Shown in pieces: positions 30,759 to 48,350 of a stretch of 64,000 nt of DNA (position 1 is the first letter of the stretch; each line of letters opens with the position of its first letter). The notes below the pieces were generated by a model. The model was given only the letters and a program-made list of their open reading frames with translations. It was not told where the DNA came from and made no database searches. The stretch lies in contig CAZJUI010000001.1 in assembly GCA_964549185.1 (NCBI GenBank), positions 850-64,849 on the forward strand, read 5' to 3'. Both the position numbers and the translations under genes were made by a program. The stretch is from Candidatus Woesearchaeota archaeon (lineage in GTDB: Archaea; Nanobdellota; Nanobdellia; SCGC-AAA011-G17; JAGVZF01).

Positions 30759-31679
30759 TTATCCGATTGCAATCAATACTGTTCCAAAAATCATAATTAA
30801 AGCAGCTACAACATTCTTTATTATTCCTCTTTCTTTAAAGAAAATATATCCATAGATTATGCTAAAAACAATGCTTAATCTTTTTACAGATATCATATAA
30901 GCATTTAAAGTTAAACTTTGCGCTTTGAAAGAAGCCAAGCTCATCAAAGCGCTTAATGTTCCTATTATCAACAATATCCATATATTAGTTTTACTAGCTG
31001 TCCTTATTGGATTTTCTTTAAATCTTATCATTATATATAATGTAGATACAATACAGATTGAAATTATAGCCAATCCAGAAACAGCTAATGGGTTTTTTGT
31101 TTGATTTATTAAAATTTTATACAGTGGAGTTACAACAGCATATAAAAAAGCAGCTATAAGCATATACATTGATCCTTTATCTCTGAATAAGCTTCTAATT
31201 GGTTGGAATGAAATAAATCTTCCTTCTGTTTTTATTATATAAGATCCAAGAAATATCAAAAAAATCCCGATTGCTCCCAATAATGATGGTATTTCATTCA
31301 AAAAAATCCATGATATTATTGTTAAAAAAACAGGTGTAAAACTCAAAAAAGGAACTGTAATTGCTAATCCAGATATTTTAATTGCCTTTACATATAAAAT
31401 TATCGCTATCATCTCTAAAATTCCTGTAACAAAAAGCAAGAGAATTGATAATAAATCTAAATTCGGAATCTTTACAATAAATAATGTTATTATAATTATT
31501 GGTAAAGAAAAAAACCATACTGCCCATGAAACAATATAATCATTATATCTATTTAACGCTAGTTTCTGAACTAAATTATTCGTAGCTGTACTTAGTGCTG
31601 CAAATAAAGATAGTATTAGCCAAAGCATATTTATATTAAAAAAACACAGTTTAAAAAACTTGTTATTAATTAAAAACAT
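30759..31679 (-). CDS. DMT-superfamily (EamA-like) 10-TM transporter.
   Basis: 306 aa, arranged as two blocks of five hydrophobic helices. The annotated start overlaps the divergent neighbour, so the true start may be the internal Met near 31628. Confidence 0.45.
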   Translation of the reverse strand: MFLINNKFFKLCFFNINMLWLILSLFAALSTATNNLVQKLALNRYNDYIVSWAVWFFSLPIIIITLFIVKIPNLDLLSILLLFVTGILEMIAIILYVKAIKISGLAITVPFLSFTPVFLTIISWIFLNEIPSLLGAIGIFLIFLGSYIIKTEGRFISFQPIRSLFRDKGSMYMLIAAFLYAVVTPLYKILINQTKNPLAVSGLAIISICIVSTLYIMIRFKENPIRTASKTNIWILLIIGTLSALMSLASFKAQSLTLNAYMISVKRLSIVFSIIYGYIFFKERGIIKNVVAALIMIFGTVLIAIG

Positions 31680-31707
31680 TTATAACTTTTTCCACCATTC
31701 CATATTT

Positions 31708-33471
31708 ATGAAAGATGTAAAGATCGGTGACAAGATAATTGGCAAAGGCCATCCTGTCTTTGTTATAGCAGAAACAGCCTCTAGCCATGTAGGAAATAAA
31801 GAAAAACTTAAACAACTAATTAAAGCTGCAATAGATTCAGATGCAGACGCAATTAACCTACAAAAATTCTATGCAAATGAGCTTGCTGTTCCTCAAAATC
31901 CACAGCATAAAGACTTAGCAATTATTGAACTTAAAGATTCAGATTGGAAAGAAATCCTAGATTATACTAAAACATTAAACACAATTATTATAGGAAATCC
32001 ATTTGATGAATCAAGTGTTGATTTTTTTGATCCTTATGTAGATGCTTTCAAAATCCACTCTACTGATATTAATAATCCAGAAATGTTAACCAAAGTTGCA
32101 AAAAAGAATAAACCTATGTTTCTCGGTATTGGAGGAGCAAAACCTTTTGAAATAAAAAGAGCAATTAAAATTCTTCAATCAACTGGAAATGATCAAATCG
32201 TCTTAATGCATGGTTTTCAAGCCTTCCCAACAAGATTAGAAGATAGTAATCTAAAATTAATACCGACAGCAGAAAAAGAATATGATCTTCCAACTGGTTT
32301 TCTAGATCATATTGATGCAGAGACAAAGATGGCAATGGTTCTTCCATTATTATCTGTAGTTCAAGGAGCTGTTTTAATTGAAAAACATATCACTCTAGAC
32401 AGAAAATTAAAAGAATATGATTACTTTTCTGCTTTACATCCAAATGAATTCAAAGAAATGATGTTCTTAATTAGAGAAACAGAAAAAGCAATCGGTCATG
32501 GACAATTTATTCAATCAGAAGGTGAAGTTGGATATAATACCATGATGAAAAAGAATTTAGTTGCAAAAGTTCAAATAAAAAAAGATACAATTTTAACAAA
32601 AGATATGATAACTTTCAAAAGAGCTCGAGTTAATCCAGGACCTTCTCCAATTGATATAGAAAAATTTATAGGTAAATCAATAAATAAAGACTTAAATGAA
32701 AATGATCCAATTACAATGGAAGATTTAAATCTTAAATCAATTATTACATTGGCTGTTAGAATGAAATCATCTAGATTGCCAAGAAAAGCTCTAGCTGTAG
32801 TTGAAGATCAAACTGTTATCGAACATTTAATTGATAGAATGAAACTTTGTAAAGTCCCATCTGATTTAATTTTATGTACATCAACTCATCCAGATGACGC
32901 TGTTTTAATAGATATCGCAAAGAAAAAAGATATAAAATATTTTGCAGGTTCAGAAGATGATGTTATGGATCGTTTCATTAAAGCAGCATTGCCTGAAAAA
33001 GCAGATATAATTGTAAGAGTTACAGGAGATAATATTTTCACAGATCCTGAATGGCTTGATGAAACAATAAGATTCCATATAAAAAATAATCTAGATTATT
33101 CATTGCAGGATGGACTTCCAATTGGTTGTGTTTCAGAAGTTATCACTCTACATAATTTAATTAAAGCTCATGAAGCAGCTCTAGATCCTGAAAATACAGA
33201 ATATATGACATATTATTTAAGAAATGAAGATTATTTCAAGGGAAAACAATTAAAAGTTTCAGATGAATTTTATTTTCCAAATTACAGATTAACAATAGAT
33301 AATCCAGAAGATTTACAATTAATTCAAGCAATCTTTAAAGAACTTTACACTCCTGGAAAAGTAATTCCATTAAAGGATGTTCTAAATTTAATAAATAAAA
33401 AGCCTGAATTGCTAAATATAAATAAAAATGTTCAAGGAATACAATTTACAGTTAAGGGTTTGAAAAGTTAG
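31708..33471 (+). CDS. Fusion: NeuB-like nonulosonic acid synthase (N-terminal) plus SpsF/PseF-like cytidylyltransferase (C-terminal).
   Basis: The N-terminus KIGDKIIGKGHPVFVIAETASSHVGN...DADAINLQKF parallels the NeuB ORF at 37739. The C-terminal half has LAVRMKSSRLPRKAL (the SxRLPxK cytidylyltransferase motif, CTP_transf_3). I moved the start to ATG 31708; the track's TTG at 31660 would overlap the divergent gene. Confidence 0.65.
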   Translation: MKDVKIGDKIIGKGHPVFVIAETASSHVGNKEKLKQLIKAAIDSDADAINLQKFYANELAVPQNPQHKDLAIIELKDSDWKEILDYTKTLNTIIIGNPFDESSVDFFDPYVDAFKIHSTDINNPEMLTKVAKKNKPMFLGIGGAKPFEIKRAIKILQSTGNDQIVLMHGFQAFPTRLEDSNLKLIPTAEKEYDLPTGFLDHIDAETKMAMVLPLLSVVQGAVLIEKHITLDRKLKEYDYFSALHPNEFKEMMFLIRETEKAIGHGQFIQSEGEVGYNTMMKKNLVAKVQIKKDTILTKDMITFKRARVNPGPSPIDIEKFIGKSINKDLNENDPITMEDLNLKSIITLAVRMKSSRLPRKALAVVEDQTVIEHLIDRMKLCKVPSDLILCTSTHPDDAVLIDIAKKKDIKYFAGSEDDVMDRFIKAALPEKADIIVRVTGDNIFTDPEWLDETIRFHIKNNLDYSLQDGLPIGCVSEVITLHNLIKAHEAALDPENTEYMTYYLRNEDYFKGKQLKVSDEFYFPNYRLTIDNPEDLQLIQAIFKELYTPGKVIPLKDVLNLINKKPELLNINKNVQGIQFTVKGLKS

Positions 33472-33512: not shown

Positions 33513-33857
33513 ATGGAACAATTAGACAAAAAAATAACTTTTGAAGATGAAGTAACAGTAAATGATCCACTTTATTCCAGTTTAGCTACAACTATTTCTG
33601 CAAGTGGATTTCAAGCAGGTTATGACCAACGGCCATGGAGGGCTCCAAAAAAAGATGATTTGGTAAGTTCCAAACACATCGATATTTTTTCCTATGAAAC
33701 AAGAAGAACTGGTATTTTTGGATTAAATAAAGAAGCAGAATGGATTGGGAGACTATATCTAAATGATCCTTATTATGGAGCAAGAGAAAATTGCAGATGG
33801 GTATTAGATGTTCACGGAAGAAAAAATATTCCGGTATTAACAGAGCTTGCAAAATAA
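33513..33857 (+). CDS. Hypothetical small protein. Its C-terminal domain is shared with the ORF at 34279.
   Basis: 114 aa. The C-terminal GRLYLNDPYYGARENCRWVLDVHGRKNIPVL aligns with GYLYFNDPNKWKMEVYGRNNINKL of the ORF at 34279. Confidence 0.35.
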   Translation: MEQLDKKITFEDEVTVNDPLYSSLATTISASGFQAGYDQRPWRAPKKDDLVSSKHIDIFSYETRRTGIFGLNKEAEWIGRLYLNDPYYGARENCRWVLDVHGRKNIPVLTELAK

Positions 33858-33974: not shown

Positions 33975-34277
33975 ATGATAGACCCAGAAGATGTAAAATT
34001 AGTAAAGGGAAGGGCAAGTGATTTTAGATTAACCAAAAATTTCACAAATGATTTAGATTTAGAATTTATCTGTATGGTATCATCTGCAGATAGTGGAGAT
34101 ATTCAAGCAGTTAAAGGCAATGTTGATGCAGGTATAAAAGAATTAGCTGCTCGGGCTGGAGCAAATTATATATTTGAATTAGAATATGTTTTTCATTTTG
34201 ATAATAATAATGCTGTAATGAATATCATATGCTATGGAGATGCTTACTTAATAAAGCCTAGAAGAGATAATCAATAA
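33975..34277 (+). CDS. YbjQ/UPF0145-family (DUF74) protein.
   Basis: AARAGANYIFELEYVFHF...MNIICYGDAYLIKP matches the conserved GA(N)A(V)...G(T)AV core of YbjQ-family proteins. 100 aa. Confidence 0.5.
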   Translation: MIDPEDVKLVKGRASDFRLTKNFTNDLDLEFICMVSSADSGDIQAVKGNVDAGIKELAARAGANYIFELEYVFHFDNNNAVMNIICYGDAYLIKPRRDNQ

Positions 34278-34278
34278 A

Positions 34279-34758
34279 ATGCCAATCGATGATGCGTTAA
34301 ATGATTTGCCAAAATCAAAAGAAGCGTCAAAACAGATAGTTGCACCTCCAGAGCCAGAGCAAGCAAATAAAGTAACCTTCATTGATACAATACAGCAATT
34401 TAGAAATAGTTTACAATATCATCTTCCTTACCAACTGGCAACAATTATAAAAAGTAAGGGGTTAGAAGTAACATGGGATAATGGTAATATAGTTTCTTCT
34501 TTAGATTCTCAGCATTTTCTAAAATTTATATCGATGGGAATTGCAGCCCAAAAAAGGTTTTGGTTTGGTCATGACTGGATAGGTTATTTATATTTTAATG
34601 ATCCTAATAAATGGAAAATGGAAGTTTATGGAAGAAATAATATAAATAAATTAAAAAATCTTGCTGACGAAATATCAAAACGGTATTCAAAAGATATAGA
34701 GCTTATATTAGAATTAGAATATCCAAGACCAAAGCCAGTAGGATTTTATAATTTATAA
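34279..34758 (+). CDS. Hypothetical protein sharing a C-terminal domain with the ORF at 33513.
   Basis: 159 aa. Its start is 2 nt after the stop of the YbjQ-like gene. See the shared motif above. Confidence 0.35.
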   Translation: MPIDDALNDLPKSKEASKQIVAPPEPEQANKVTFIDTIQQFRNSLQYHLPYQLATIIKSKGLEVTWDNGNIVSSLDSQHFLKFISMGIAAQKRFWFGHDWIGYLYFNDPNKWKMEVYGRNNINKLKNLADEISKRYSKDIELILELEYPRPKPVGFYNL

Positions 34759-34759
34759 T

Positions 34760-35902
34760 CTAAATCTTTAATTCTTCATAAATTAACCTAACAACCCTTT
34801 CAGTAGCTTTCCCATCATTACCTTCAACAAAGCTTTTCCTTCTTTCTTTTAATTCTTCTCTAAATTCTCCATTATATAATATTTTCATTAAATTAGGAAC
34901 TAACTCTCTTGTCTCATAAACGCCAAGAGAATAACCATTTTTATTAGTAATTAATGGATCTTCTGTTTTTAATCCAACTTGTAAACTTAAAACATCGGTA
35001 TCTAATAAACAAGCTTCCATTAATGAAGTTGACATCATCCCAACTACCAAATTAGAAGCTTTCATTGTCTCTCTCGTATTATAATTATTATTATACTCTC
35101 TTTTTGTTGCATCTTCCTTTCCACTAATAACAAAATTCATATCTTTTAACAATAATGTTCTTTCTGCAATATCTTCAAATGTCTCTCTGGGATGAAATTT
35201 AATCACAAAAGTTCCATGATATCCCATGTCATTCAATCCCTTAGACAATATTTTAAAAATTGTTTCTTCATTATAACCCCAATCAGTCGTTTTATTAGCT
35301 TTAAGATCTCCTTTAATTGGCTGTGAAATAAATGTTATCAAACTTCCTTCTGGGTGCACTCCAAAATATTCTCTTATCTCTTTTCTTTTATTAATTGTAA
35401 ATTTAGCATTTAATTCTCCTATATCATCAAAGTAAGGGTTTCCTGTAATCTTTAATCTTTCTCTAGGTAAACTTTCTTTAACCATTTTCTCCAAACTTTC
35501 TGCATCTAATGCTGTATGAATATCAGGCATGCATCCTAAGTTATCTCCAGTTTTATCATTTCTAACTCTTACAATATAATTTACAGGTAAATCTATAACA
35601 GATAAACTTCTAACTCCTATCCTTCTAGCAGCTAATATTCCTTCTTTTTCAACACACCATCCACCACTGCTTCCAGTAACTAAAAAGTTTGGTTTTTCTT
35701 CTTCCATAGCTATATCACCACTCAAGTAATCATCTAGTTTTCTATGGGGTAAGCCAGCTTGTGTAAATAAACTAACAGCAGGTCCGTTAGCTATTAATGT
35801 CAAATCCACTTTATCATCTTTTTGCAATCTTCTTGCAACAGGGATAACAGAATTCGCACTTCCAGTATATTGCGCTGCCACCATCACTTTAGGTTTTGTC
35901 AC
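34760..35902 (-). CDS. Putative GT-B-fold glycosyl/nonulosonate transferase with a KxHP motif.
   Basis: 380 aa Rossmann-like protein. The VIKFHPRE motif is paralogous to IIKLHPKD in the ORF at 35942. HP motifs are catalytic in bacterial GT-B sialyltransferases and KpsC/S-type transferases. This is an assignment by motif only. Confidence 0.3.
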   Translation of the reverse strand: MTKPKVMVAAQYTGSANSVIPVARRLQKDDKVDLTLIANGPAVSLFTQAGLPHRKLDDYLSGDIAMEEEKPNFLVTGSSGGWCVEKEGILAARRIGVRSLSVIDLPVNYIVRVRNDKTGDNLGCMPDIHTALDAESLEKMVKESLPRERLKITGNPYFDDIGELNAKFTINKRKEIREYFGVHPEGSLITFISQPIKGDLKANKTTDWGYNEETIFKILSKGLNDMGYHGTFVIKFHPRETFEDIAERTLLLKDMNFVISGKEDATKREYNNNYNTRETMKASNLVVGMMSTSLMEACLLDTDVLSLQVGLKTEDPLITNKNGYSLGVYETRELVPNLMKILYNGEFREELKERRKSFVEGNDGKATERVVRLIYEELKI

Positions 35903-35941
35903 TTTTTATCACAAAATAAAGGTGTAGAAAAATATATAAAT

Positions 35942-37726
35942 CTATTTTATAGATATTTCATCAATAAGATTTATAACTCTTTCGGTGCTTTTTCCATCAA
36001 TTTTATAAGCATAATCCTTAATAAATTTCTCCATGTTTTTTTCTAGTTTTTCCTTAATCTTTTTATTGTTAAAAACCTCATTTATTGCCTTTTTCAATTC
36101 ATTTTCTTCTTTTATATCAATTACACATCCATAATCATTGTAATCAATCATTTCATTACTTCCTTTTATGTTGGCTAAATTTAAAGTAATTACAGGAACA
36201 TTAAACAACATAGATTCAATAACAACAGTAGATGAAGCCCTGCTTATAGTTAAATCTGCAATATTCAAAAAATTATAAATATCATAATCTTTAACAACAA
36301 CAACTTTGTTTTTAATATCCTTTAATCTGCTATTATAGAAATCAACCTCATCTTTTGGATGTAATTTTATTATTAGTTGCTCATCTTGCAAAGAATTAAT
36401 AACCGCCTTGAACATATCTTCTTTCTCTGGAACTGTCTGTGTTCCAAATAATATTATCTTTTTATCTTTATCCAAATTAAATTGTTTATATACTTCTTCT
36501 TTATTATATTGTTTATTTTTAATAATATCGAACTTACTGGCTCCAGTTATAACTATTTTCTTATCATTAACATTATTTTGTAATAAAAATTTCTTTGTAG
36601 CTTCTCCCCAAACAGCTATTTTTGTGCTTGTAACAGGAACAAATCCCAATCTTCCAGCAACTCCATGTTGTAAAACTAAAGATTTTATCTCTAATTTATT
36701 CCCGACAAAAGATACTGTTTTTCCAAATCTATGAACATCACTGCCTATAACAATAACATCTATCTTCTCTTTTTTTATAACAATTTTAATTCCTTCAATT
36801 AGTCTAACAACTTCATAAAAATGTTTAAACACGGTATAATACAATTCATCTTCTAAAATTTCCCATAAATTAATATTATCATACATAAATCTCCTATCTT
36901 GTTGTAAAATTTCCCATATCTGATCAAGCTCTTTCTTCTTTTTATCAAGAATATTATTTATTTCATTTAAATCATAATCCGCAAATGTATTAAATTTAAT
37001 GCCCTTTTTCGCAAATGCCTCCTGAACGTCTAAAGCTAAAGCGAATACTAAATAATTTTTGCCTTGTTTTTTCATCTCTTCTATAATCGGAAGCATTATT
37101 TGCGGATCTAAATTTAAATAGCTAAAAAACATCACTCTCTTATCTCCATAGTTTTTATTCTTATAATTAAAATTTTTTAACTTTACATAATTATCCAAAA
37201 CAACTGGTTTTATGTATCTTCCAGCAATAAATTTTGTTTTTTTTCTAAATATATTCATAAGATTAACATTCCCATTGCTAATAATCTCATATTTAGCATT
37301 CAGTTCCTTCAAACTAGTAATTATTGTTTTGCTTAGAAGATCTTTTCCATCAACTATCAAAAACATATCTGGTTTCTCTTTCTCAATAACCTTCTTTATT
37401 AATTCTACATTTACAATCAAGCTTCTTAAAACAAGTTCAAAATGTAAGCTTGTACATTCATATAATGGAATTCCATCATGCTTTGCCAATTTTTTTGCTT
37501 CAGAAAAACTAATCATTTTCCAATTAATGCTCATATTTCTTATTTTATCACTTAATTCATTAATTAATTTAGTTTCATTGATATAATCACTCTTCGTTTT
37601 AACATTCGTAGAATTAATTTTTTTGTTAGAAAGATTTAGTACTATTCCATCCCCTAAATCTTTTAATCTTCTATCAATCTTATCTAGTTCTTTCTCGTCT
37701 TTTACTATTCCGATAATCCTTGTCAT
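35942..37726 (-). CDS. Two-domain putative GT-B-like transferase (KxHP motif), paralogous to the ORF at 34760.
   Basis: 594 aa. The C-terminal half contains VLQHGVAGRLG and IIKLHPKDE. It is co-oriented with the ORF at 34760 and with NeuB. Confidence 0.3.
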   Translation of the reverse strand: MTRIIGIVKDEKELDKIDRRLKDLGDGIVLNLSNKKINSTNVKTKSDYINETKLINELSDKIRNMSINWKMISFSEAKKLAKHDGIPLYECTSLHFELVLRSLIVNVELIKKVIEKEKPDMFLIVDGKDLLSKTIITSLKELNAKYEIISNGNVNLMNIFRKKTKFIAGRYIKPVVLDNYVKLKNFNYKNKNYGDKRVMFFSYLNLDPQIMLPIIEEMKKQGKNYLVFALALDVQEAFAKKGIKFNTFADYDLNEINNILDKKKKELDQIWEILQQDRRFMYDNINLWEILEDELYYTVFKHFYEVVRLIEGIKIVIKKEKIDVIVIGSDVHRFGKTVSFVGNKLEIKSLVLQHGVAGRLGFVPVTSTKIAVWGEATKKFLLQNNVNDKKIVITGASKFDIIKNKQYNKEEVYKQFNLDKDKKIILFGTQTVPEKEDMFKAVINSLQDEQLIIKLHPKDEVDFYNSRLKDIKNKVVVVKDYDIYNFLNIADLTISRASSTVVIESMLFNVPVITLNLANIKGSNEMIDYNDYGCVIDIKEENELKKAINEVFNNKKIKEKLEKNMEKFIKDYAYKIDGKSTERVINLIDEISIK

Positions 37727-37738
37727 ACTCTATCATAA

Positions 37739-38809
37739 CTATTTCTTCAATTCTCCCACATGTTCCCAATCTAATATATCATCCTCTTTCATATCCTTTA
37801 CTGCTTTTCTTCCTATAATCTCTCTAAAGAATCTCGGATTAATTCCTGTACCGGGTCTTTTTGATGTTATATTTTTAATGTCAAATATCTCCCCAGCCTT
37901 AATATCTCTATTAGCTACAATGCTTCTTCTTGCTAATCTTTGAGCCGGCTCTTCAACTTTAATTGGTCGTCTTGCTAATGAACTTCCTAATGCACTTTCG
38001 ATCTGTTTTATATTTGTGACCATCTCTTTCAATTCTTTAGGATCTACAGATAACCAATGATCCGCACTTCCCTTCAATGCTTTATCTATGGTATAATGTT
38101 TCTCTATCATCTTTGCTCCTAAACTAACAGCTCCGATTGGCACCAAAGTTCCTAAACTATGATCACTTAATCCAATTAAATAATCCGGAAATATTTTCTT
38201 TAAAGTTGGAATCATATTCAAATTCATATCTTCAGTTGGTGTCGGATAAGACAAAATGCAATGCAACAATATTATTTGATTATTTCCCTCTTCTTCAATC
38301 ACCCTTGCAGCTTCTTCTATCTCCCCAATTGTAGCTGCTCCTGTTGATAATGCCATTGGTAATCCTTTTTTTGCTATATGTCTTAAAAGATTTAAATGAG
38401 TTATATCCGCACTTGCAATTTTATACATTGGCACCCCAATCTTTTCCAAAAAATCGGCACTTTCCTCGTCAAAGGGTGTTGAAAAAAATATTATTCCTAA
38501 TTCTTCAGCATATTTCTGCATTTTAATAAAATCTTCTTCGCTAAGATAATCGAAGTTCTTGTATTCATCATACTGTGTTTCATCACTTTCTGTCCAATAT
38601 TTGGGAGAATTTTTTATTGCTATTTTTTCAGCTTTATATGTTTGGAATTTTATGGCATCAGCTCCATTTTCTTTTGCCTTTTTTATTAATTCATAACCTC
38701 TTTCTAACATACAATCATGATTTACTCCAGCTTCAGCTACAACAAAACATGGCTCATCATCCCCTACATATCTATTTCCTATCTTTATTCTTGTCACCAT
38801 TTCAACCAC
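37739..38809 (-). CDS. neuB: N-acetylneuraminate/nonulosonic acid synthase (NeuB/PseI/LegI family) with a C-terminal SAF domain.
   Basis: CFVVAEAGVNHDCMLE...ADAIKFQTYKAEK, STPFDEESADFL, ILLHCILSYPTPTEDMNLN and a C-terminal KAGEIFD...ITSKRPGTG SAF domain. The match to E. coli NeuB blocks is strong. Confidence 0.85.
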   Translation of the reverse strand: MVEMVTRIKIGNRYVGDDEPCFVVAEAGVNHDCMLERGYELIKKAKENGADAIKFQTYKAEKIAIKNSPKYWTESDETQYDEYKNFDYLSEEDFIKMQKYAEELGIIFFSTPFDEESADFLEKIGVPMYKIASADITHLNLLRHIAKKGLPMALSTGAATIGEIEEAARVIEEEGNNQIILLHCILSYPTPTEDMNLNMIPTLKKIFPDYLIGLSDHSLGTLVPIGAVSLGAKMIEKHYTIDKALKGSADHWLSVDPKELKEMVTNIKQIESALGSSLARRPIKVEEPAQRLARRSIVANRDIKAGEIFDIKNITSKRPGTGINPRFFREIIGRKAVKDMKEDDILDWEHVGELKK

Positions 38810-40193
38810 CCTTATAGTTTCTTATTATCTGTTCAGCAAGCCACAAATCATATTCATTATATATCCTTACAGCTTCGTTCGGCATCATCTCTACATAAGC
38901 TACACTATTCCCAATAATTCCATTATTGTTTAAATTTTCTAAAGTTGTAATATAAAATGCTCCATTTTCTTCTAGGATAGTATCTTTTTCATCTCTCAAT
39001 AATCTTTTATTAAATAATGGCTCGATTCCATATCTTCCTGGTTTCCAATGAAAATTAAGGTTTGCACAAACAGAGACTATGCTATCTGTTTTAAATATTA
39101 ACTGGGTAAAAATTCCTTCTTTTATATGCTCACTTGTTTTAAAGGGGCTTATCAAATGTAAAACAGCAATTAAATCAGGAACATAATCATCATTCTTCTT
39201 CAAATAATCAACAACATGTCTTACAACATCATCAACATGAACTGTTTTTTTTGCTAAATCAACAGGTCTTTTGATAACATAAGCTCCTATTTTTTCAGCA
39301 GCACTTGCAATGTCATAATCTTCAGTAGAAACAACAATTTTATTAAACAATTCAGTTTTTTTCGCTTCATCTATCGTATAAGATAATAAAGGTTTTCCAT
39401 TTAAATTAGCGATTGGAATTTTAATCCCATTAATCATGTCGCCCCTAGCAGGAATAACAGCTAATATTTTCAAATTTTTTAACTTTCCATCATAATGTCT
39501 TTTAACAAATTCTTCCTTTACAATTCTTTTAGAGTGTAAAATCCCTTTCATATTCTTAGTCATATTTGCGCCATGTCTTCTATAATAAAACAAAGGCAGA
39601 TTAATATTTCTAACTTTAAATTTAGTAATAAACTTCATCCAAAAATCATAGTCTTCTCCAATCTTTAAATTTTCATTATATCCCCCAATTTCATCATAGC
39701 ATGTTCTCTTGTACATCGCTCCAGCAGCTAAAGGACTTCTTTGCAGTAAATCAACTTCTTCATTAACTTTCATCAATCTATTATGCTCCAATATCTTTCC
39801 ATCTTCATCTATGGTATAATAATCTGAATAAACCAAATCAACATCTTTATTTTCATACAAAAATCTTTCTTCTACCAATAGCAAATTATCATCAAAATAA
39901 TCATCAGCATCTAATCTTATTATAAAATCCCCCTGAGACATACTAATTCCTTTATTACAAGCTGCACTTAATCCAACATTATCTACCCTTATTACTTTCA
40001 AATTATTTGGAAATTTTGATTTATAACTCTGAATAACATCTTGAGTCTCATCTGTACTTCCATCATCTACTATAATAATCTCAAAATCCTTATATGTCTG
40101 TCTAAATAAACTTTCCAGGCATTTACCTAAAAACCTTCCGTAATTGTGAGCTGTCACTATCACACTTACTCTCGGTTTCTTAATAGTCTCCAT
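38802..40193 (-). CDS. Fusion: GT2 glycosyltransferase (N-terminal) plus NeuA-like CMP-nonulosonate synthetase (C-terminal).
   Basis: The N-terminus is VSVIVTAHNYGRFLGKCLESLFRQTYKDFEIIIVDDGSTDET (GT2). The C-terminus ILAVIPARGDMINGIKIPIANLNGKPLLSYTIDEA...VVSTEDYDIASAAEKIGAYVIKRP...LHLISPFK parallels NeuA blocks (IPARGGS, LxGKPLIAYTI, VSTDD, QPTSPLR). Confidence 0.7.
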   Translation of the reverse strand: METIKKPRVSVIVTAHNYGRFLGKCLESLFRQTYKDFEIIIVDDGSTDETQDVIQSYKSKFPNNLKVIRVDNVGLSAACNKGISMSQGDFIIRLDADDYFDDNLLLVEERFLYENKDVDLVYSDYYTIDEDGKILEHNRLMKVNEEVDLLQRSPLAAGAMYKRTCYDEIGGYNENLKIGEDYDFWMKFITKFKVRNINLPLFYYRRHGANMTKNMKGILHSKRIVKEEFVKRHYDGKLKNLKILAVIPARGDMINGIKIPIANLNGKPLLSYTIDEAKKTELFNKIVVSTEDYDIASAAEKIGAYVIKRPVDLAKKTVHVDDVVRHVVDYLKKNDDYVPDLIAVLHLISPFKTSEHIKEGIFTQLIFKTDSIVSVCANLNFHWKPGRYGIEPLFNKRLLRDEKDTILEENGAFYITTLENLNNNGIIGNSVAYVEMMPNEAVRIYNEYDLWLAEQIIRNYKGG

Positions 40194-40228
40194 AGTGTCA
40201 CCTTTTTCGCTTATATTATAAGTAATTC

Positions 40229-41305
40229 CTATATATTAACCTTTATCTCAGAAGGTTTAGCATATCTATAACCCTCATGCAGATTGCAAGTTCTGCAAGC
40301 AGGCATAACATCTAACTTGCTTTGTTTATGCAACTCTCTTAATTGATTTAGTATTGCTCCATTCCATATCTCTTTTAATGTTTGTTTAGTAACATCACCC
40401 ACAACATTTTTTCTAAACCAATCTCCACAGCACATCATAACCTTTCCATCCCACGCTACCATCAATCTTTGGAATGGCTGTGGACAAGTTTTTCTTCCTA
40501 AGGTAATTTGATCATATTCAATTGATCTATCATTTTCTTCTCCTTCCCCCCTATTGCTGTAATCATTAGTTGCAACATGATCTACTATTCCTTCCCACAT
40601 TTTGATAAATTGGTCAACTTCATGAACATTATCTTTCATCCTAACCATCTGTATTCTGATAAATGGTTTTTTCTTTCCCATTTCATTTCTTATTCTTACA
40701 AAATCTTTAATATTTTTCATTAAAATGTCATATTTTGCTCTCACTCTTATTTTTTCATAAGTTTCCTTAGTTGCTCCATCCATAGAAAATATTATTCCAT
40801 CTAATCCAGCTTCTATCAATCCTCTTATTTTATTTTCATTTAATAAAGTTCCATTAGAATTTGTTTGTAATTCCTTTATGCCTTTATCTTTTGCATATTT
40901 CACCATTTCAATAAATTTAGGATGTATTAATGGTTCTCCTCTCCAATTAAGTTTCATAGAATATAATCCTTCTTTTGCACATTCATCTACAATTTTATGA
41001 AATAAATCCATTGTAATAAATCCGTCTTGAATTCCGCTTCTATCAAAACTCTGTGGGCACATTACACATCTTAAATTGCATGCATCACTCGGTTCTATAT
41101 CAACATGTGTTGGGAATTTAGGTATTAATCCAAATCTTGCAACTCTCGGGCTCCAATTCCATTTAGCCCTATACCATAAGTACTTAGGATCTTTCTTATT
41201 CATAAACTTCTTTAATTTAGCTTTAAATCCACCTTGTATGTGATGTCCACTTCCACCATAGAAGTGTTGTTTCTCGTTTGTTTCATTACTTTGTTCAGTT
41301 GACAT
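40229..41305 (-). CDS. Radical SAM protein with a C-terminal SPASM/twitch Cys-rich domain.
   Basis: The CxxxCxxC triad is SDACNLRCVMC. The C-terminus CPQPFQRLMVAWDGKVMMCCGDW...PACRTCNL provides auxiliary Fe-S cysteines. Confidence 0.7.
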   Translation of the reverse strand: MSTEQSNETNEKQHFYGGSGHHIQGGFKAKLKKFMNKKDPKYLWYRAKWNWSPRVARFGLIPKFPTHVDIEPSDACNLRCVMCPQSFDRSGIQDGFITMDLFHKIVDECAKEGLYSMKLNWRGEPLIHPKFIEMVKYAKDKGIKELQTNSNGTLLNENKIRGLIEAGLDGIIFSMDGATKETYEKIRVRAKYDILMKNIKDFVRIRNEMGKKKPFIRIQMVRMKDNVHEVDQFIKMWEGIVDHVATNDYSNRGEGEENDRSIEYDQITLGRKTCPQPFQRLMVAWDGKVMMCCGDWFRKNVVGDVTKQTLKEIWNGAILNQLRELHKQSKLDVMPACRTCNLHEGYRYAKPSEIKVNI

Positions 41306-41312
41306 ATTAATC

Positions 41313-42767
41313 TTAAACAGTAGCTTCCCCGCTTTTTCCGGTTATCAAATTTAAAGCGCCTAAAGCTCCTCTCGCATAATATTTTACTTGTTCAAATGAT
41401 TTAATTCCAATAAACATCTTCCATAAATAACTTGGTCTCATATAAAATTCTTTGTAAGCTTTCTTTCTTAACTCTTGTAATTGGTCTGTTGTTAATTCCC
41501 TAGATCTTATTAATGGATCTTCAGCTATCTGCACCCAATTATCCCAATTTGGATCTGAAATTAAGTTTTCTTTTACAGTAATATCATACAATCCGGTTCC
41601 AACAATCGGGATTGCCAAGAAAAAATAAGCTAACTGAGGATTAATCTCTTTAGCTAATTTTATTGTTTCTTCAAATGTTTCTGTTGTCTCTCCAGGATAT
41701 CCTAAAATAAAAGATGCTGATGCTGGAATTCCAACTTCATGTATTAACTTAAAAGCTGCTTTTATTTGTGCAGGGGTTTGATCTTTTTCCATTGCATCCA
41801 ATATTTTTTGACTTCCTGACTCTACTCCAAATCTAACAAAATAACATCCTGATTTTTTCATCTTTTCTAAGCTTTCTCTGTCACAATGATTAACTCTAGT
41901 CAAACAGTTCCAATGCAGATCATAATCTCTTTTTATTAATCCATCTAAAATTGGATTCATTCTGCTTTTATTAATAACAAAAATTTCATCATTAAATTCC
42001 AAGCAATGAATATTAAATTTATCAACCAAATAGTCTATTTCTTCCAATGTTCTCTCAACACTCCAATATCTTACTTTTCTCGTCCACATAACCTTAGAAG
42101 CACAAAAATTACATCTGTAAGGACATCCTCTTAAAGAAAAAAATATTGTGAATGGTTGTAATTTAACACCTTTAACCTGGAATGAACTATGGTGCGCAGG
42201 TGGTCTATATAATTCCATAGGCAATAAATCATAAGCTGGCATTGGCAAAATATCTAAATTTTCAATTAATGGTCTTGGAGCAGTCATTCTTATCTGTCCA
42301 TTGTCTCTGTAAATCATTCCATTAACTTTAGATAAATCTTTTTTTCCTCTTTTTTCTAATTTATCTAATAGCTCAACTGTTGTTATCTCCCCCTCACTTA
42401 TAACTCCATAATCAACAATTGGAAATTCTTTCATTGTCTCAAAAGGCAGTGCAGTCATATGATCTCCACCTAAGAAAGTCTTAACATTAGGACTAACATT
42501 TCTAGCTATCTGTAGAACATCACATGCTTTTTTTACTGTAGGTGTAACAGCCCCAACTCCAACTACATCAACATCTTTTGGAATATGTTTATGCAATTCA
42601 CTCATCGGAATTTGTAAAGCAACAGCATCTAGAATACTCACTTTATGCCCATTCTCTCTCATATAAGCAGCAAGATAAGCTAATCCCATTGGTTGATTAA
42701 TTCCTGCAACTGTTGGAACTTTCTTATATACTTCCTGGTAGCTTGGGTTGATGAGTTGGACTTTCAT
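41313..42767 (-). CDS. B12-binding radical SAM protein, paralog 3.
   Basis: N-terminal B12-binding domain (MKVQLINPS...). The CxxxCxxC triad is GCPYRCNFC. 484 aa. Confidence 0.8.
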   Translation of the reverse strand: MKVQLINPSYQEVYKKVPTVAGINQPMGLAYLAAYMRENGHKVSILDAVALQIPMSELHKHIPKDVDVVGVGAVTPTVKKACDVLQIARNVSPNVKTFLGGDHMTALPFETMKEFPIVDYGVISEGEITTVELLDKLEKRGKKDLSKVNGMIYRDNGQIRMTAPRPLIENLDILPMPAYDLLPMELYRPPAHHSSFQVKGVKLQPFTIFFSLRGCPYRCNFCASKVMWTRKVRYWSVERTLEEIDYLVDKFNIHCLEFNDEIFVINKSRMNPILDGLIKRDYDLHWNCLTRVNHCDRESLEKMKKSGCYFVRFGVESGSQKILDAMEKDQTPAQIKAAFKLIHEVGIPASASFILGYPGETTETFEETIKLAKEINPQLAYFFLAIPIVGTGLYDITVKENLISDPNWDNWVQIAEDPLIRSRELTTDQLQELRKKAYKEFYMRPSYLWKMFIGIKSFEQVKYYARGALGALNLITGKSGEATV

Positions 42768-42912
42768 AGAACTTCCCTCTTTTATCGTTAAATAGTAAGA
42801 ATATTTAAATTTTGGTGTTTTTTAAGCATTATTGTGATATAATATATAGTTAACAATAGTTAATTAATCTTTAAACTAAAGTTTTTTAAATAATCTAAAT
42901 AAATCTTATTTT

Positions 42913-43230
42913 TCATATTTTGATGCCTTCTTTTACGGCTTCTGAAACTATAGAAACCTGTTTCTTTAATTTCTTGAACTCTCCCGGAGTATAGCAAAGA
43001 AAATCTACTGGATAATTTAAATCCCAATAATCATACATTTTAGCTCCTCTTTTAAAAAAATCTAATTTTTTAAATTTGGGGCTTACTATTATCAAATCTA
43101 TATCGCTCCATTTATGTGTTCTACCTGAAACTTGGGAACCAAATAAATACATATTTGTTATAGGGAAATCCTCATTTACAGATTTTTTAAAAAATTTTAA
43201 TTTTAATTTTATAGTTTTTTTCTTATCCAT
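42913..43230 (-). CDS. Minimal nucleotidyltransferase (MNT), a HEPN/MNT-type toxin-antitoxin component.
   Basis: MYLFGSQVSGRTHKWSDIDLIIV is the GSx(n)DxD nucleotidyltransferase signature. 105 aa. It overlaps the upstream HEPN gene by 22 nt. Confidence 0.7.
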   Translation of the reverse strand: MDKKKTIKLKLKFFKKSVNEDFPITNMYLFGSQVSGRTHKWSDIDLIIVSPKFKKLDFFKRGAKMYDYWDLNYPVDFLCYTPGEFKKLKKQVSIVSEAVKEGIKI

Positions 43231-43469
43231 TCTAATATTTCCTCCGAATATTCCAAAAATTTCCGAGATATATCTCTAATGTTCTTTTCTTCCTTAATAT
43301 CAGGATATCTAGCGTAAATATAAGATAAAGTTAATTCTTTACAATATTCAATAAGATTGTTTGGTAATTCAACATCCTTTCCGAGTTCTACTAAATCATG
43401 AATCTTTTTAAGTTTATTGGTTTTCTTATATATAATGCTTTCAGTCCTTTCTCTATAGATTGTTGACAA
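43209..43469 (-). CDS. HEPN-domain protein, partner of the MNT gene.
   Basis: 86 aa helical protein with the YIYARYPD segment seen in HEPN (PF05168) members. It is tightly coupled to the MNT gene. Confidence 0.45.
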   Translation of the reverse strand: MSTIYRERTESIIYKKTNKLKKIHDLVELGKDVELPNNLIEYCKELTLSYIYARYPDIKEEKNIRDISRKFLEYSEEILEWIRKKL

Positions 43470-46823: not shown

Positions 46824-48350
46824 GTGATTCTTATGGAAAAAAAAGTAAAATCAAAAGAAAAGAAAAAGATCATTTTAATCTATCCTAATCTAGGTATTTA
46901 TGGAAAGATCATTCAAGATTTACCTTTAGCTTTACTGCAAACAGCAAGAATTGTCTATGATAAAGGTTATGATATATTAATTCTCGATCAAAGACTAGAT
47001 GATAACTGGAGAGATACATTAAAAAAAGAAATTAACAAAGACACTTTATTTGTAGCTCTATCTGCAATGATAGGTGAACCAATAAACTATGCTCTAGAAA
47101 TTGCAAAGTTCATGAAAGATAACTATCCTGAAATGCCTGTTCTTTGGGGCGGTATTCATCCAACATTATTGCCTTTACAAACTTTAGAACATCCATTAGT
47201 TGATATTGTAATTAAAGGAGATGGAGAAGAAACAATCTATGATGTTGCTCAAGCATTAGAAAAAGGTAAATCATTAAAGGGAATTCCAGGTGTTTTCTAT
47301 AAAGAAAAAGACGGAACTATAGTTTCAAATCCAGTAAGAGCTCCATCTAATCTAGATGCTTTACCTCCAATTCCATATAATTTAGTAAACATTGAAGCTT
47401 ATGAAAGACAAGGATTCAAAGAAAAAACATTCACAATATTTACCTCCGCTTCCTGCCCTCATAGATGTGCATTTTGCCATGTTCCAGGTGAAAAAAGTAC
47501 ATGGCGTCCTGAAAGTGTAGACAAAACAATGGCTCATTTAAGATATATTTATAATACTTACCATCCTCAATATATCTACTTTGGAGATAATGATTTCTTT
47601 GTAAGAATGGACAGGGCAAAGGAAATTTTTAGAAGAATAAAAGAAGAAAAATTTGAAGGAGTTACTTTCGGTTTCAGGGGAACAAGAATAGATGAACTAG
47701 ACAGAATGGATGATGCAATGTTATCTTTAATGGAAGAAATTAATCTAACATATTTACATATTGGAGCTGAATCAGGATCACAAAGAATTTTAGATTTCAT
47801 CTGGAAAGACATAAAATTAGAGCAAACAATAAGAGTAAATGAAAAACTTGCTAAACATCCAAAACTTCATCCATCTTACAATTTTTTCTGTGGAGTTCCT
47901 ACAGAAACTAAAGCTGATTTAAAAGCAACAACTGATCTAATTTTAAGATTATTGCAAGATAATCCAAATGCTCAGATTAGCAGCGCAACTCAATTCACTC
48001 CTTATCCTGGAACAAGATTATTTGACATAGCTATTCAATATGGATTTAAGCCTCCAACTTCGCTAGAAGGATGGGCAAAGTTTGATCCAAGTGATTTCGC
48101 AAAAAGACTTCCATGGTTAAGTAAAGAAAGACAAAGATTATTAGACTTAATTTACATAACAGCATGGTTTGTAGATAAAAAAGTGAATTGGAACTTTACA
48201 TCAGATGAAATATTCTGGAAAGTGTTTCGTACATTGTCATCAGCTTATCGCCCAATAGCAAAATTTAGATTGAAACATCATTTTACAGGTCTTCCATTTG
48301 AATATCCTGCTAGAAAAATATTCTTTAATATATTAGAAAATAGAAACTAA
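46824..48350 (+). CDS. B12-binding radical SAM protein, paralog 4.
   Basis: N-terminal B12-binding domain. The CxxxCxxC triad is SCPHRCAFC. 508 aa. The start may be ATG 46833 rather than GTG 46824. Confidence 0.8.
   Translation: MILMEKKVKSKEKKKIILIYPNLGIYGKIIQDLPLALLQTARIVYDKGYDILILDQRLDDNWRDTLKKEINKDTLFVALSAMIGEPINYALEIAKFMKDNYPEMPVLWGGIHPTLLPLQTLEHPLVDIVIKGDGEETIYDVAQALEKGKSLKGIPGVFYKEKDGTIVSNPVRAPSNLDALPPIPYNLVNIEAYERQGFKEKTFTIFTSASCPHRCAFCHVPGEKSTWRPESVDKTMAHLRYIYNTYHPQYIYFGDNDFFVRMDRAKEIFRRIKEEKFEGVTFGFRGTRIDELDRMDDAMLSLMEEINLTYLHIGAESGSQRILDFIWKDIKLEQTIRVNEKLAKHPKLHPSYNFFCGVPTETKADLKATTDLILRLLQDNPNAQISSATQFTPYPGTRLFDIAIQYGFKPPTSLEGWAKFDPSDFAKRLPWLSKERQRLLDLIYITAWFVDKKVNWNFTSDEIFWKVFRTLSSAYRPIAKFRLKHHFTGLPFEYPARKIFFNILENRN

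Follow-up and report, generated by a model that had tools for sequence, protein, structure and literature searches.

A predicted twitch-type radical SAM enzyme linked to nonulosonic acid genes in the glycosylation island of a DPANN archaeon

Recognition at microbial surfaces depends to a large extent on nonulosonic acids (sialic, legionaminic and pseudaminic), whose biosynthesis is, to our knowledge, regarded as well mapped and as free of radical chemistry. The literature that we found on legionaminic and pseudaminic acid never mentions radical SAM enzymes, and we found no paper linking such enzymes to a nonulosonate pathway. The canonical pathways (NeuB/NeuA; LegB/C/H/G/I/F) share NeuB-type synthases and CTP_transf_3 CMP-synthetases with the locus described here. 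Unlike the described pathways, this locus also contains radical SAM genes, two NeuB paralogues with separate cytidylyltransferases, and a GT2-cytidylyltransferase fusion.

Several characterized radical SAM enzymes serve here for comparison. BtrN, the 2-deoxy-scyllo-inosamine dehydrogenase of butirosin biosynthesis, is the founding twitch-domain radical SAM enzyme, BlsE (cytosylglucuronate decarboxylase) uses a cytosine-linked sugar acid which is chemically near a CMP-ulosonic acid, and NeoN is a radical SAM epimerase with a cysteine hydrogen donor.

The whole stretch of 64,000 nucleotides that was analyzed, here called the window, comes from a Candidatus Nanoarchaeia (DPANN) archaeon and is an island for protein N-glycosylation, with AglB/STT3, flippases and many glycosyltransferases. 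Both radical SAM reading frames named in the initial annotation are present (Table 1) and, as it had proposed, they are adjacent to and co-oriented with NeuB and GT2-CTP_transf_3 genes, within a tightly packed array of six genes on the minus strand (34760-42767). The gene of the B12-type enzyme is the first and that of the twitch enzyme the second, followed by the GT2-CTP_transf_3 fusion, the NeuB-SAF gene and two genes for GT-B proteins, with intergenic gaps (from the B12-type gene onward) of 7, 35, −8, 12 and 39 bp. The 7-bp gap between the first two genes implies that they would be co-transcribed. The putative promoter of the array lies in the AT-rich spacer in front of it, which contains a TATA-like sequence (TTTAAATA) approx. 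42 nt ahead of the ATG codon and a GAGGG ribosome-binding motif.

Table 1. Features of the radical SAM/nonulosonate gene region within the window.
Feature	Coordinates	Strand	Basis
B12-binding radical SAM enzyme, 484 aa	41313-42767	-	Pfam B12-binding + Radical_SAM
Twitch-type radical SAM enzyme, 358 aa	40229-41305	-	Pfam Radical_SAM + SPASM
GT2-CTP2, GT2 + CTP_transf_3 fusion; conserved module member	38802-40193	-	Pfam
NeuB2, NeuB/LegI-type PEP-condensing synthase + SAF domain	37739-38809	-	Pfam NeuB, 293 bits
GT-B-fold protein, 594 aa; kin to BFO_1060 and "surface carbohydrate biosynthesis" families	35942-37726	-	NCBIfam
Another GT-B-fold protein (380 aa) from that family; closes the array	34760-35902	-	NCBIfam NF046086, 42 bits
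NeuB1-SAF-CTP1 fusion, 603 aa, TTG start	31660-33471	+	Pfam NeuB + SAF + CTP_transf_3
AT-rich spacer, 145 bp, 5′ of the B12-type gene	42768-42912	-	Sequence read directly

The 358-aa protein carries EPSDACNLRCVMC and matches the Pfam models Radical_SAM (PF04055; 60 bits) and SPASM (56 bits), while the 484-aa protein matches B12-binding (PF02310; 68.8 bits, residues 19-133) and Radical_SAM (PF04055; 80 bits, residues 213-372); the cut-offs are exceeded by a wide margin in every case, which excludes chance similarity. Assignment of the 358-aa protein to the radical SAM superfamily is based on the CX3CX2C motif (C76-x3-C80-x2-C83, invariant in the family alignment), the PF04055 match and an AF2 fold resembling radical SAM structures. 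The same alignment revealed four universally conserved cysteines in the C-terminal domain (C274, C292, C337 and C340), which line up in an HMM alignment with those of the single auxiliary cluster of BtrN. A further residue, C293, is kept in 167 of the 224 aligned homologues and in all 29 of the close ones. With four universal C-terminal cysteines and C293 limited to a subfamily, a full seven-cysteine SPASM domain with two auxiliary clusters was rejected; the Pfam SPASM model still matches because a twitch domain is a truncated SPASM domain. Of the SPASM/twitch protein with a C-terminal cysteine cluster originally proposed, it is therefore the twitch form that stands: the enzyme is assigned to the BtrN-like twitch subclass, with one predicted auxiliary [4Fe-4S] cluster.

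The best match of the family profile to the PDB is BtrN (E = 9e-27, spanning the core and the twitch domain). BtrN is also the best Foldseek match (4m7t; TM 0.76 on the target) of the AF2 model (pLDDT 85.7), with BlsE again among the top matches. The two proteins share the CX3CX2C core, an aligned C-x17-C...C-x2-C pattern and one predicted auxiliary cluster, and the small-molecule, carbohydrate-type substrate of BtrN is a further point of likeness. Unlike BtrN, the window protein has an N-terminal extension of approx. 60 residues, with the invariant Y45 and R46 on its helix, many conserved Arg and Lys residues and the additional C293, and its gene lies among NeuB, CMP-synthetase and GT genes instead of 2-deoxystreptamine genes; at 16-18% identity it was rejected as an orthologue of BtrN (DOIA dehydrogenase). 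BlsE and DesII are the second-best structural and sequence matches, at just 14-17% identity (NCBIfam rSAM_BlsE, 46 bits; cut-off 400). By profile and by fold, the protein is thus placed with sugar-tailoring enzymes and not with peptide maturases, and its nearest characterized relatives (BtrN, BlsE, DesII) all tailor sugars. The epimerase EpeE was recovered as a fold match only (8ai2; E = 3e-9), with no family membership found at the sequence level, and, unlike what is proposed for the window protein, it acts on peptides. As in epimerases that use a cysteine hydrogen donor, the window subfamily keeps one cysteine (C293) beyond the four cluster ligands, a putative hydrogen donor.

The family that contains the twitch protein is large (approx. 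8,000 clusters of 50% identity at E <= 1e-30) and includes members with no link to NeuB. The subfamily of interest is marked by a signature (Y45, R46, K118, K139, R217, R280, C293), which in the window protein reads YRKRKRRCDW, as it does in the closest orthologues. When R217/R280/C293 were tracked, a NeuB or CTP_transf_3 gene was found within 6 kb of 29 of the 38 signature-bearing homologues and of 5 of the 40 homologues without the signature (Fisher p = 1.2e-8, a value that overstates the significance, since the loci are phylogenetically non-independent); in the remaining 9 of the 38 no such gene occurs within that distance. The signature separates sugar-pathway twitch enzymes from look-alike SPASM/twitch proteins. 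Of the 11 closest loci with an orthologue (>260 bits, with usable downstream sequence), 10 (all but L008) have a NeuB gene that starts no more than 125 bp downstream of the twitch gene; most of these loci continue with a CTP gene, GT2-CTP2 and another NeuB gene. Twitch orthologues linked to NeuB and CMP-sugar synthetase genes were found in at least 15 phyla of Archaea and Bacteria. The cultured bacterium Halochromatium roseum DSM 18859 has a signature-bearing twitch gene as the first gene of a complete legionaminic-acid-type operon (PtmE-like NTP transferase, CTP_transf_3, 4,6-dehydratase, DegT aminotransferase, formyltransferase, NeuB and 2-epimerase), and the full set of Leg-type genes is present in the related loci L028, L025 and L029.

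Domain fusions support a tie between the twitch enzyme and a cytidylyltransferase. In one protein (P0412) CTP_transf_3 and the twitch enzyme are fused, and the uncharacterized family TIGR04321 ("spiro-SPASM"), for which no paper was found, has the same architecture: its N-terminal half (model positions 11-226) matches the CTP1-type cytidylyltransferase and its C-terminal half (226-503) the twitch protein. This is the only curated family that aligns with the whole twitch protein, although the score (93 bits) is below the cut-off of 250 and the window protein is unfused. Other fusions join the neighboring genes: NeuB1 with CTP1 (the window, L010, L014, L035 and hundreds more), NeuB1, CTP1, GT2 and CTP2 (P0355 and probably the 1042-aa ORF of L015), and NeuB, NeuB1 and CTP (P0261).

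On the basis of this conserved synteny, the twitch enzyme, NeuB1, CTP1, GT2-CTP2 and NeuB2 appear to form a conserved, horizontally mobile gene set, which is apparently widespread and undescribed. Its carriers include DPANN archaea, Nitrosopumilaceae, SAR11-like Pelagibacteraceae, Omnitrophota, Campylobacterota and purple sulfur bacteria. All five parts are present and orthologous in the window, with 40-46% reciprocal similarity to the components of locus L004 and with the signature, and a NeuB-family synthase together with CTP_transf_3 identifies the region as a nonulosonic acid cluster. The gene order departs from that of the module: the window twitch gene adjoins GT2-CTP2 and NeuB2, and the NeuB1-CTP1 fusion is detached, lying 6.7 kb away on the opposite strand, whereas elsewhere the two orthologous genes directly follow the twitch gene. 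This fusion is 41% identical to NeuB1 and 46% to CTP256 of L004, and only 28% to NeuB2 of that locus, to which the window NeuB2 is 40% identical. GT2-CTP2, which would combine a CMP-sugar synthetase with a glycosyltransferase, shares 46% identity with the L004 fusion along the whole protein (47-55% for the GT2 domain across bacterial loci). None of NeuB2, GT2-CTP2 and NeuB1-CTP1 reached the equivalog cut-offs for NeuB_NnaB, PseI or PseF, the scores of NeuB2 being 360 bits (cut-off 400) and 313 bits (cut-off 340) for the first two. The window also holds a WecB-type (non-hydrolysing) 2-epimerase (7916-9031) and, at 54-60 kb, a DegT aminotransferase, an acetyltransferase and a Gfo/Idh/MocA oxidoreductase; no 4,6-dehydratase was found in it. 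The 594-aa GT-B protein, which scored below the cut-offs for NF046086 (102 bits) and TIGR04396 (68 bits), is a candidate nonulosonate transferase: its homologues are encoded directly upstream of the twitch gene in four loci (L004, L006, L016, L017). A homologue of the 380-aa GT-B protein adjoins the twitch gene in L025.

The explanation that we favor, with moderate confidence, is that the twitch protein is the sugar-tailoring enzyme of a mobile nonulosonate gene set and that the B12-type enzyme is separate from it. Domain identities, the cysteine pattern, synteny, fusions and orthology are observed directly; substrate and reaction are deduced from relatives as distant as BtrN, and the reaction would be oxidation or epimerization. 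The radical chemistry on a nonulosonic acid or a precursor that the initial annotation proposed has good support in the case of the twitch enzyme alone, through its sugar-tailoring kin, the NeuB/CTP linkage and the fusions, with the chemistries named there (C-methylation, epimerization, dehydration) as candidates; it was not supported for the pair as a unit, as orthologues of the B12-type enzyme occur without NeuB.

The gene set would make one or two CMP-activated nonulosonic (legionaminic/neuraminic-like) acids. SAM would be cleaved reductively at the CX3CX2C cluster of the twitch enzyme, and the resulting 5′-deoxyadenosyl radical would abstract a hydrogen atom at a carbinol carbon in the sugar of the NeuB1/CTP1 branch. 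The substrate is most likely a CMP-linked ulosonic acid, in view of the fusions with a cytidylyltransferase and of the numerous Arg and Lys positions that are conserved. The substrate radical might then follow the BtrN route, with oxidation to a ketone via the one auxiliary cluster, or alternatively be quenched on the opposite face by the conserved Cys293 to give an epimer. The link of the subfamily with NeuB and CMP-synthetase genes points to an unrecognized tailoring step and probably to an unrecognized sugar structure, in carriers that include abundant and poorly understood groups (DPANN archaea, marine Thaumarchaeota, SAR11 relatives and Omnitrophota). Two cultured carriers, H. roseum DSM 18859 and Pseudoalteromonas sp. 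MSK9-3, make the proposal directly testable.

A reading that we consider possible, though distinctly less probable, is that the twitch enzyme acts before condensation, converting an NDP-hexose or free hexose(amine) by oxygen-independent oxidation, isomerization or dehydration into the aldose that NeuB1 condenses with PEP, instead of tailoring a CMP-sugar. The twitch gene precedes NeuB1 in all syntenic loci, and in Halochromatium it heads the operon, ahead of the NDP-sugar genes; gene order is, however, weak evidence of reaction order. Two proteins (P0289, P0301) carry a xylose-isomerase-like TIM-barrel fused N-terminally to NeuB1-CTP1, and no twitch gene occurs on their contig of 10.5 kb; this hints that a step before NeuB1 has been taken over by a non-orthologous enzyme, although the Pfam match of the TIM-barrel is sub-threshold (20 bits). 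Against this reading, the direct fusion partner of the twitch enzyme is the cytidylyltransferase, which catalyzes the last step, and not an early enzyme, and the spiro-SPASM match points the same way.

The second radical SAM protein (484 aa) has the invariant motif C215-x3-C219-x2-C222 in its family alignment, as expected of the superfamily, and is assigned to the class B (B12-binding) enzymes, with an N-terminal cobalamin-type Rossmann domain, a radical SAM core and predicted cobalamin binding; we know of no sequence motif diagnostic for cobalamin binding in this class. It has no auxiliary Fe-S cluster, so that the earlier phrase "two auxiliary-cluster enzymes" was loose wording. Its best PDB profile matches are AprD4 (161 bits), QCMT (9ccb), OxsB and TokK, and its AF2 model (pLDDT 86.5) is closest in Foldseek to AprD4 (TM 0.76-0.81) and then to QCMT, with OxsB, TokK and TsrM also matching in fold. 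AprD4, which serves as a radical SAM 1,2-diol dehydratase in the apramycin pathway, is of comparable size, and its substrate is an aminosugar. Unlike AprD4, the window protein scores only 74 bits for NCBIfam rSAM_AprD4 (cut-off 500) and has the Pfam B12-binding match given above; no AprD3-like reductase partner was identified for it. AprD4 has a related domain yet binds no cobalamin (PMC12931638). The cobalamin-dependent class (QCMT/MgmA, TokK, TsrM, CysS, OxsB), mostly methyltransferases, with OxsB a ring-contraction enzyme, has the same N-terminal B12-binding Rossmann domain and core. At 16-19% identity to this class, the protein has non-methylases (BchE, HpnJ) as its closest curated families, and no NCBIfam equivalog cut-off was reached (BchE 208/481, HpnJ 202/578, ApyD 166/750, PhpK 144/600). 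It may act as a cobalamin-dependent C-methyltransferase or else as a diol dehydratase like AprD4.

Orthologues of the B12-type enzyme (53-61% identity) occur in three DPANN glycosylation islands (L086-L088) that lack neighboring NeuB and CTP_transf_3 genes as well as a close twitch homologue, and NeuB and CTP genes are likewise absent from all 49 loci of more distant homologues. In L086 and L088 a gene for a 317-aa GT2 follows that of the B12-type enzyme; its window orthologue (61% identical) lies 15 kb away, at 57743-58702. L086 also contains two distant SPASM-type radical SAM genes 7-8 kb from the B12-type gene. The B12-type protein thus appears to be a separate tailoring enzyme of the island and not an obligate partner of the nonulosonate genes, its gene having presumably become the first of the operon through a lineage-specific rearrangement.

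These data make it unlikely that the two enzymes work as a pair that modifies a shared nonulosonic acid, or its precursor, in successive steps, e.g. with C-methylation or dehydration by the B12 enzyme and oxidation or epimerization by the twitch enzyme yielding a branched or deoxy nonulosonate. In favor of such a pair, both genes have the same orientation at the start of the NeuB operon, their closest solved relatives (BtrN and AprD4) tailor aminoglycoside sugars, and a B12 radical SAM gene lies directly beside a signature-type twitch gene in four unrelated contigs: L018, L023, L170 (CTP-twitch fusion, then B12 enzyme) and that of P0428 (B12 enzyme, then a 2-hydroxyacid-dehydrogenase-twitch fusion in which C293 is substituted, then CTP_transf_3). 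However, B12 enzymes near twitch genes of different genomes are at most 36% identical to each other (near-duplicate loci aside) and are therefore not one orthologous partner. A B12 gene is absent from most twitch-NeuB clusters, and its presence within 6 kb is not enriched (6 of 38 nonulosonate-linked twitch genes versus 8 of 40 others; p = 0.77). Moreover, the window enzyme is one of four paralogues, the three others (27-29% identical to it) being scattered through the island. Adjacent radical SAM genes in these glycosylation islands should not all be assigned to the same pathway.

A similarly low probability is given to a combined reading, in which the twitch enzyme would perform the first known radical SAM step in nonulosonic acid biosynthesis, epimerizing or oxidizing a CMP-legionaminic/neuraminic-type sugar, and the co-transcribed B12 enzyme would here further C-methylate or deoxygenate that sugar. 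The widely spread module would then yield a sialic-acid-like isomer new to chemistry.

Still less probable is that the B12-domain enzymes of the island, including the one described here, modify the polyprenol/dolichol carrier or scavenged membrane lipids instead of a sugar. Their orthologues adjoin PMT_2 (GT-C), LPG_synthase_TM and small GT2 (Dol-P-sugar-synthase-like) genes, the lipid B12/radical SAM family TIGR04072 is matched with 132 bits (cut-off 360), and B12-binding radical SAM enzymes reportedly act on archaeal tetraether lipids (PMC11214058). On the other hand, AprD4, the nearest relative by structure, has a sugar as its substrate, lipid-biosynthesis genes are absent from the window, and all family matches are far below the cut-offs.

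That the twitch protein is a peptide or metalloenzyme maturase (of the anSME, sactisynthase, PqqE or tungsten-enzyme type) with a coincidental NeuB neighbor is very improbable: SuiB, anSME and CteB are among the fold matches and the top NCBIfam scores are for a tungsten cofactor oxidoreductase maturase (134 bits) and a putative metalloenzyme maturase (108 bits), yet these NCBIfam matches span the generic N-terminal core only (residues 64-238) and are far below the cut-offs (380 and 400 bits), neither a sulfatase gene nor one for a tungstoenzyme lies nearby in the window, and the precursor peptide gene that would have spoken for a maturase was sought nearby and not found, the sole spacer ORF being an AT-rich one of 22 aa with a TTG start, while BtrN and BlsE are the best full-length matches and the synteny with NeuB/CTP genes is kept across both domains of life.

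The two minus-strand open reading frames reported in the initial annotation were both found exactly where stated (358 and 484 aa; coordinates are collected in the table). Their products, HLC56875.1 and HLC56876.1, come from a Candidatus Nanoarchaeia (DPANN) metagenome-assembled genome (GC content approx. 28%). Pfam recognized Radical_SAM (60 bits) and SPASM (56 bits) domains in the 358-aa protein, and B12-binding (69 bits) and Radical_SAM (80 bits) domains in the 484-aa protein. On the same strand, 3′ of the two radical SAM (rSAM) genes, lie a GT2-CTP_transf_3 fusion gene, a NeuB-SAF gene and genes for two GT-B proteins (Pfam assignments). With gaps of 7, 35, −8, 12 and 39 bp along it, the six-gene array (42767 to 34760) resembles a single operon. 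The array is preceded by a 145-bp AT-rich spacer with a putative TATA-like box and GAGGG ribosome-binding motif, both read by eye, since a sigma-70 scanner is unsuited to an archaeal host.

Features of the glycosylation island and its radical SAM array
Feature	Position	Strand	Remarks
B12-type rSAM paralogue	2643-4061	+	
DUF362 protein	4650-5672	-	adjoins the preceding paralogue
Large ORF	6452-7912	+	486 aa; no Pfam match at E ≤ 0.01
AglB/STT3	11768-14374		
B12-type rSAM paralogue	16685-18028	+	
Large ORF	18029-19483	-	484 aa; no Pfam match at E ≤ 0.01
GT9 domain	22316-23362	+	
GT9 domain	25484-26470	-	
GT9 domain	26467-28356	-	
NeuB1-CTP1 fusion	31660-33471	+	603 aa; NeuB-SAF-CTP_transf_3; TTG start
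Small ORF	33513-33857	+	no family match
Small ORF	33975-34277	+	no family match
Small ORF	34279-34758	+	no family match
NeuB2	37739-38809	-	
GT2-CTP2 fusion	38802-40193	-	
Twitch enzyme	40229-41305	-	358 aa
B12-type enzyme	41313-42767	-	484 aa
HEPN/MNT pair	42913-43469	-	
B12-type rSAM paralogue	46824-48350	+	
PMT_2	52656-54326		
HEPN/MNT pair	56159-57164	-	
GT2	57743-58702		
Large ORF	60130-61098	+	322 aa; no Pfam match at E ≤ 0.01

The alignment of the 358-aa protein with its family (A1, 29 homologues) revealed that C76/C80/C83 and the C-terminal C274, C292, C293, C337 and C340 are invariant. Across 224 homologues, C274, C292, C337 and C340 are essentially universal, and C293 is present in 167, the others having T, P, D or N. 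When the family profile was compared with the PDB, the top match was BtrN (E = 9e-27); core and C-terminal domain were both aligned, and the four universal C-terminal cysteines fell on those of BtrN. BtrN is also the closest fold (4m7t; TM 0.76 on target) to the AlphaFold model (pLDDT 85.7), followed by BlsE and then by SuiB, DesII and anSME. The Cys pattern and the BtrN match therefore make the protein first labelled SPASM a twitch-type enzyme with a single predicted auxiliary cluster. Its nearest characterized relatives are carbohydrate-modifying enzymes, and no NCBIfam equivalog scored near its cut-off. A peptide-maturase function was rejected, since the NCBIfam "maturase" matches are limited to the generic core.

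The twitch family is large (>1,400 matches at 44–56% identity; 8,188 50%-identity clusters at E ≤ 1e-30). Among the 11 closest loci (>260 bits, usable downstream sequence), NeuB starts no more than 125 bp downstream of the twitch gene in 10 (L001, L004, L006, L007 and L010–L015; the exception is L008), and most of these loci continue with CTP_transf_3, a fused GT2-CTP_transf_3 gene and another NeuB. Gene families were called by HMM; single-linkage clustering merged NeuB, CTP and GT2 owing to fusions, and two of its families (F16 and F23) were antisense ORFs picked up in high-GC loci. In the window, NeuB1-CTP1 is orthologous to the twitch-adjacent NeuB1 and CTP1 (41% and 46% identity to the L004 proteins), NeuB2 to the second NeuB (40%), and GT2-CTP2 shares 46% identity with the L004 fusion, so that, judged by these orthologies, the module is complete but rearranged. 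NeuB1-CTP1 is detached from the twitch gene, and three small ORFs lie 3′ of it on the same strand.

The subfamily carries a signature of seven residues (Y45, R46, K118, K139, R217, R280 and C293). NeuB or CTP_transf_3 was present within 6 kb of 29 of the 38 signature-bearing homologues versus 5 of the 40 lacking the signature (Fisher p = 1.2e-8, uncorrected for phylogeny). The carriers include archaea (Nanoarchaeia, Woesearchaeota, Undinarchaeota, Nitrosopumilaceae and Methanosarcinales) and bacteria (Omnitrophota, Nitrospirae, Desulfobacterota, Campylobacterota, Alpha- and Gammaproteobacteria, and others). Halochromatium roseum DSM 18859 is a cultured organism in which the twitch enzyme could be tested: its signature-bearing gene (9947-11023) is the first of a complete legionaminic-acid-type operon (L028, 9947-19456) encoding a PtmE-like NTP transferase, CTP_transf_3, a 4,6-dehydratase, a DegT aminotransferase, a formyltransferase, NeuB and a 2-epimerase, the last fused to a formyltransferase C-terminal domain.

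Two other arrangements were observed. In Campylobacterota (Sulfurimonas and Sulfuricurvum MAGs; L062, L067, L071, L073 and L085) a triplet of twitch paralogue, CTP_transf_3 and twitch gene recurs with 0–3 bp between genes, one cytidylyltransferase thus being flanked by two different twitch enzymes. Chloroflexota loci L049, L051 and L063 contain twitch homologues without the nonulosonate signature amid two to five B12 rSAM genes; these clusters, which had no NeuB or CTP, are of a different, rSAM-rich type.

Domain fusions point the same way as synteny in linking the twitch enzyme to NeuB and CTP. The twitch domain is fused to CTP_transf_3 (P0412), to an FkbM methyltransferase (P0397) and to a 2-hydroxyacid dehydrogenase (P0428). 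In the uncharacterized NCBIfam family TIGR04321 ("spiro-SPASM"), the C-terminal half matches the twitch protein and the N-terminal half the CTP1 orthologue. NeuB1 and CTP1 are fused in hundreds of proteins; P0261 has two NeuB domains and one CTP domain (NeuB, NeuB1, CTP), and P0355 unites NeuB1, CTP1, GT2 and CTP2 in one polypeptide, an arrangement implying a single pathway for all these activities. Such four-domain fusions are approx. 1,045 aa long (L015, about 10.9–14.1 kb; P0355 and P0371). Bacillus NeuB-CTP fusions (32–33% identity) were uninformative, since they are orphans lacking any twitch or glycan genes around them.

On this comparative evidence, the window's twitch enzyme is clearly a member of an uncharacterized twitch-NeuB module. 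In contrast to this module, known nonulosonate pathways have no radical SAM step, no paired NeuB paralogues with separate cytidylyltransferases and no GT2-cytidylyltransferase fusion. Literature searches returned no paper joining radical SAM to nonulosonic, legionaminic or pseudaminic acid, NeuB or CMP-sugars, and none on radical SAM in archaeal N-glycosylation or on the "spiro-SPASM" family. This robust association is widespread, seems not to have been described before and lends itself to tests in cultured bacteria; its chemistry we infer as follows.

Most likely, the sugar from which the twitch enzyme would abstract a carbinol hydrogen belongs to the NeuB1/CTP1 branch. The substrate radical could then meet one of two fates: BtrN-like oxidation to a ketone by way of the auxiliary cluster, or quenching by C293 from the opposite face, which would yield an epimer as in Cys-dependent rSAM epimerases, one of which (EpeE) is among the fold matches. 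Both the conserved cationic residues and the fusions to a cytidylyltransferase speak for a CMP-linked acid as the predicted substrate. Gene order speaks for a pre-condensation step, as do fusions in which a xylose-isomerase-like TIM-barrel (a weak Pfam match) precedes NeuB1-CTP1 (P0301, also P0289), found on contigs without a twitch gene (L171, 1622-4327; L172, 2847-5552). This domain may be an oxygen-tolerant substitute for the radical SAM step.

The B12-type enzyme has a class B architecture, judged from domain order. All its NCBIfam scores were far below the cut-offs (BchE 208/481, HpnJ 202/578, AprD4 74/500). Its profile matches AprD4, QCMT (9ccb; PMC12931638), OxsB and TokK, and the fold nearest to its AlphaFold model (pLDDT 86.5) is that of AprD4 (TM 0.76–0.81), with QCMT next. 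The enzyme is predicted to act as a cobalamin-dependent C-methyltransferase or else as an AprD4-like diol dehydratase, probably on some sugar or lipid-linked intermediate.

Close orthologues (53–61% identity) occur only in Woese-/Nanoarchaeota. The three inspected loci (L086–L088), all glycosylation islands, had no NeuB or CTP_transf_3 and no close twitch homologue nearby; L086 has two distant SPASM-type rSAM genes 7–8 kb from the orthologue. In L086 and L088 the orthologue is flanked by a divergent PMT_2 gene on one side and by the gene for a 317-aa GT2 on the other; the window orthologues of both (61% identity for the GT2) are elsewhere in the island. NeuB or CTP occurred in 0 of 49 loci of more distant homologues (at most 37% identity among the metagenome matches listed), which serve as a background set only. 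Several unrelated contigs (L018, L023, L170 and that of P0428) have a B12 rSAM gene beside a twitch gene; these B12 rSAMs are not orthologous to one another, nor are they enriched near nonulosonate-type twitch genes (6/38 versus 8/40 others). The reading of the two enzymes as a tandem pair is weakly supported. Because of the NeuB-free orthologue loci, the non-orthologous neighbours and the lack of enrichment, the adjacency is best read as a lineage-specific rearrangement that would have placed an island tailoring enzyme at the operon head, although, with co-transcription, the two enzymes may still share a substrate. Radical chemistry on a nonulosonic acid or its precursor, originally proposed for both proteins, is strongly indicated for the twitch enzyme by synteny, signature and fusions, and weakly for the B12-type enzyme, given its NeuB-free orthologues.

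The entire window is a protein-glycosylation island. Besides AglB/STT3, it encodes a GT4-family transferase, two flippases, many GT2, GT4, GT9 and PMT_2-type GT-C proteins, methyltransferases, a carbamoyltransferase, a DegT aminotransferase, an acetyltransferase and a Gfo/Idh/MocA oxidoreductase. Its four B12-domain rSAM paralogues share only 25–32% identity, and there is a single twitch/SPASM-type enzyme. The related DPANN islands L086 and L088 likewise contain several B12-binding rSAMs. Cobalamin synthesis is not expected in DPANN archaea, which raises the question of how these enzymes are supplied with it. The DUF362 protein may be a redox partner; in L088 (18013-19083) a DUF362 protein with ferredoxin-like motifs is also located near a B12 rSAM.

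GT9 (LPS-heptosyltransferase-family) domains are present in this archaeon, one fused to GT2 with a PfkB sugar kinase gene adjacent, and GT9 genes occur again in L086. The island also contains two HEPN-nucleotidyltransferase pairs (MNT-type, toxin-antitoxin-like); the first separates the flippase gene from the B12-type rSAM gene of the array, at a site that looks like a rearrangement junction.
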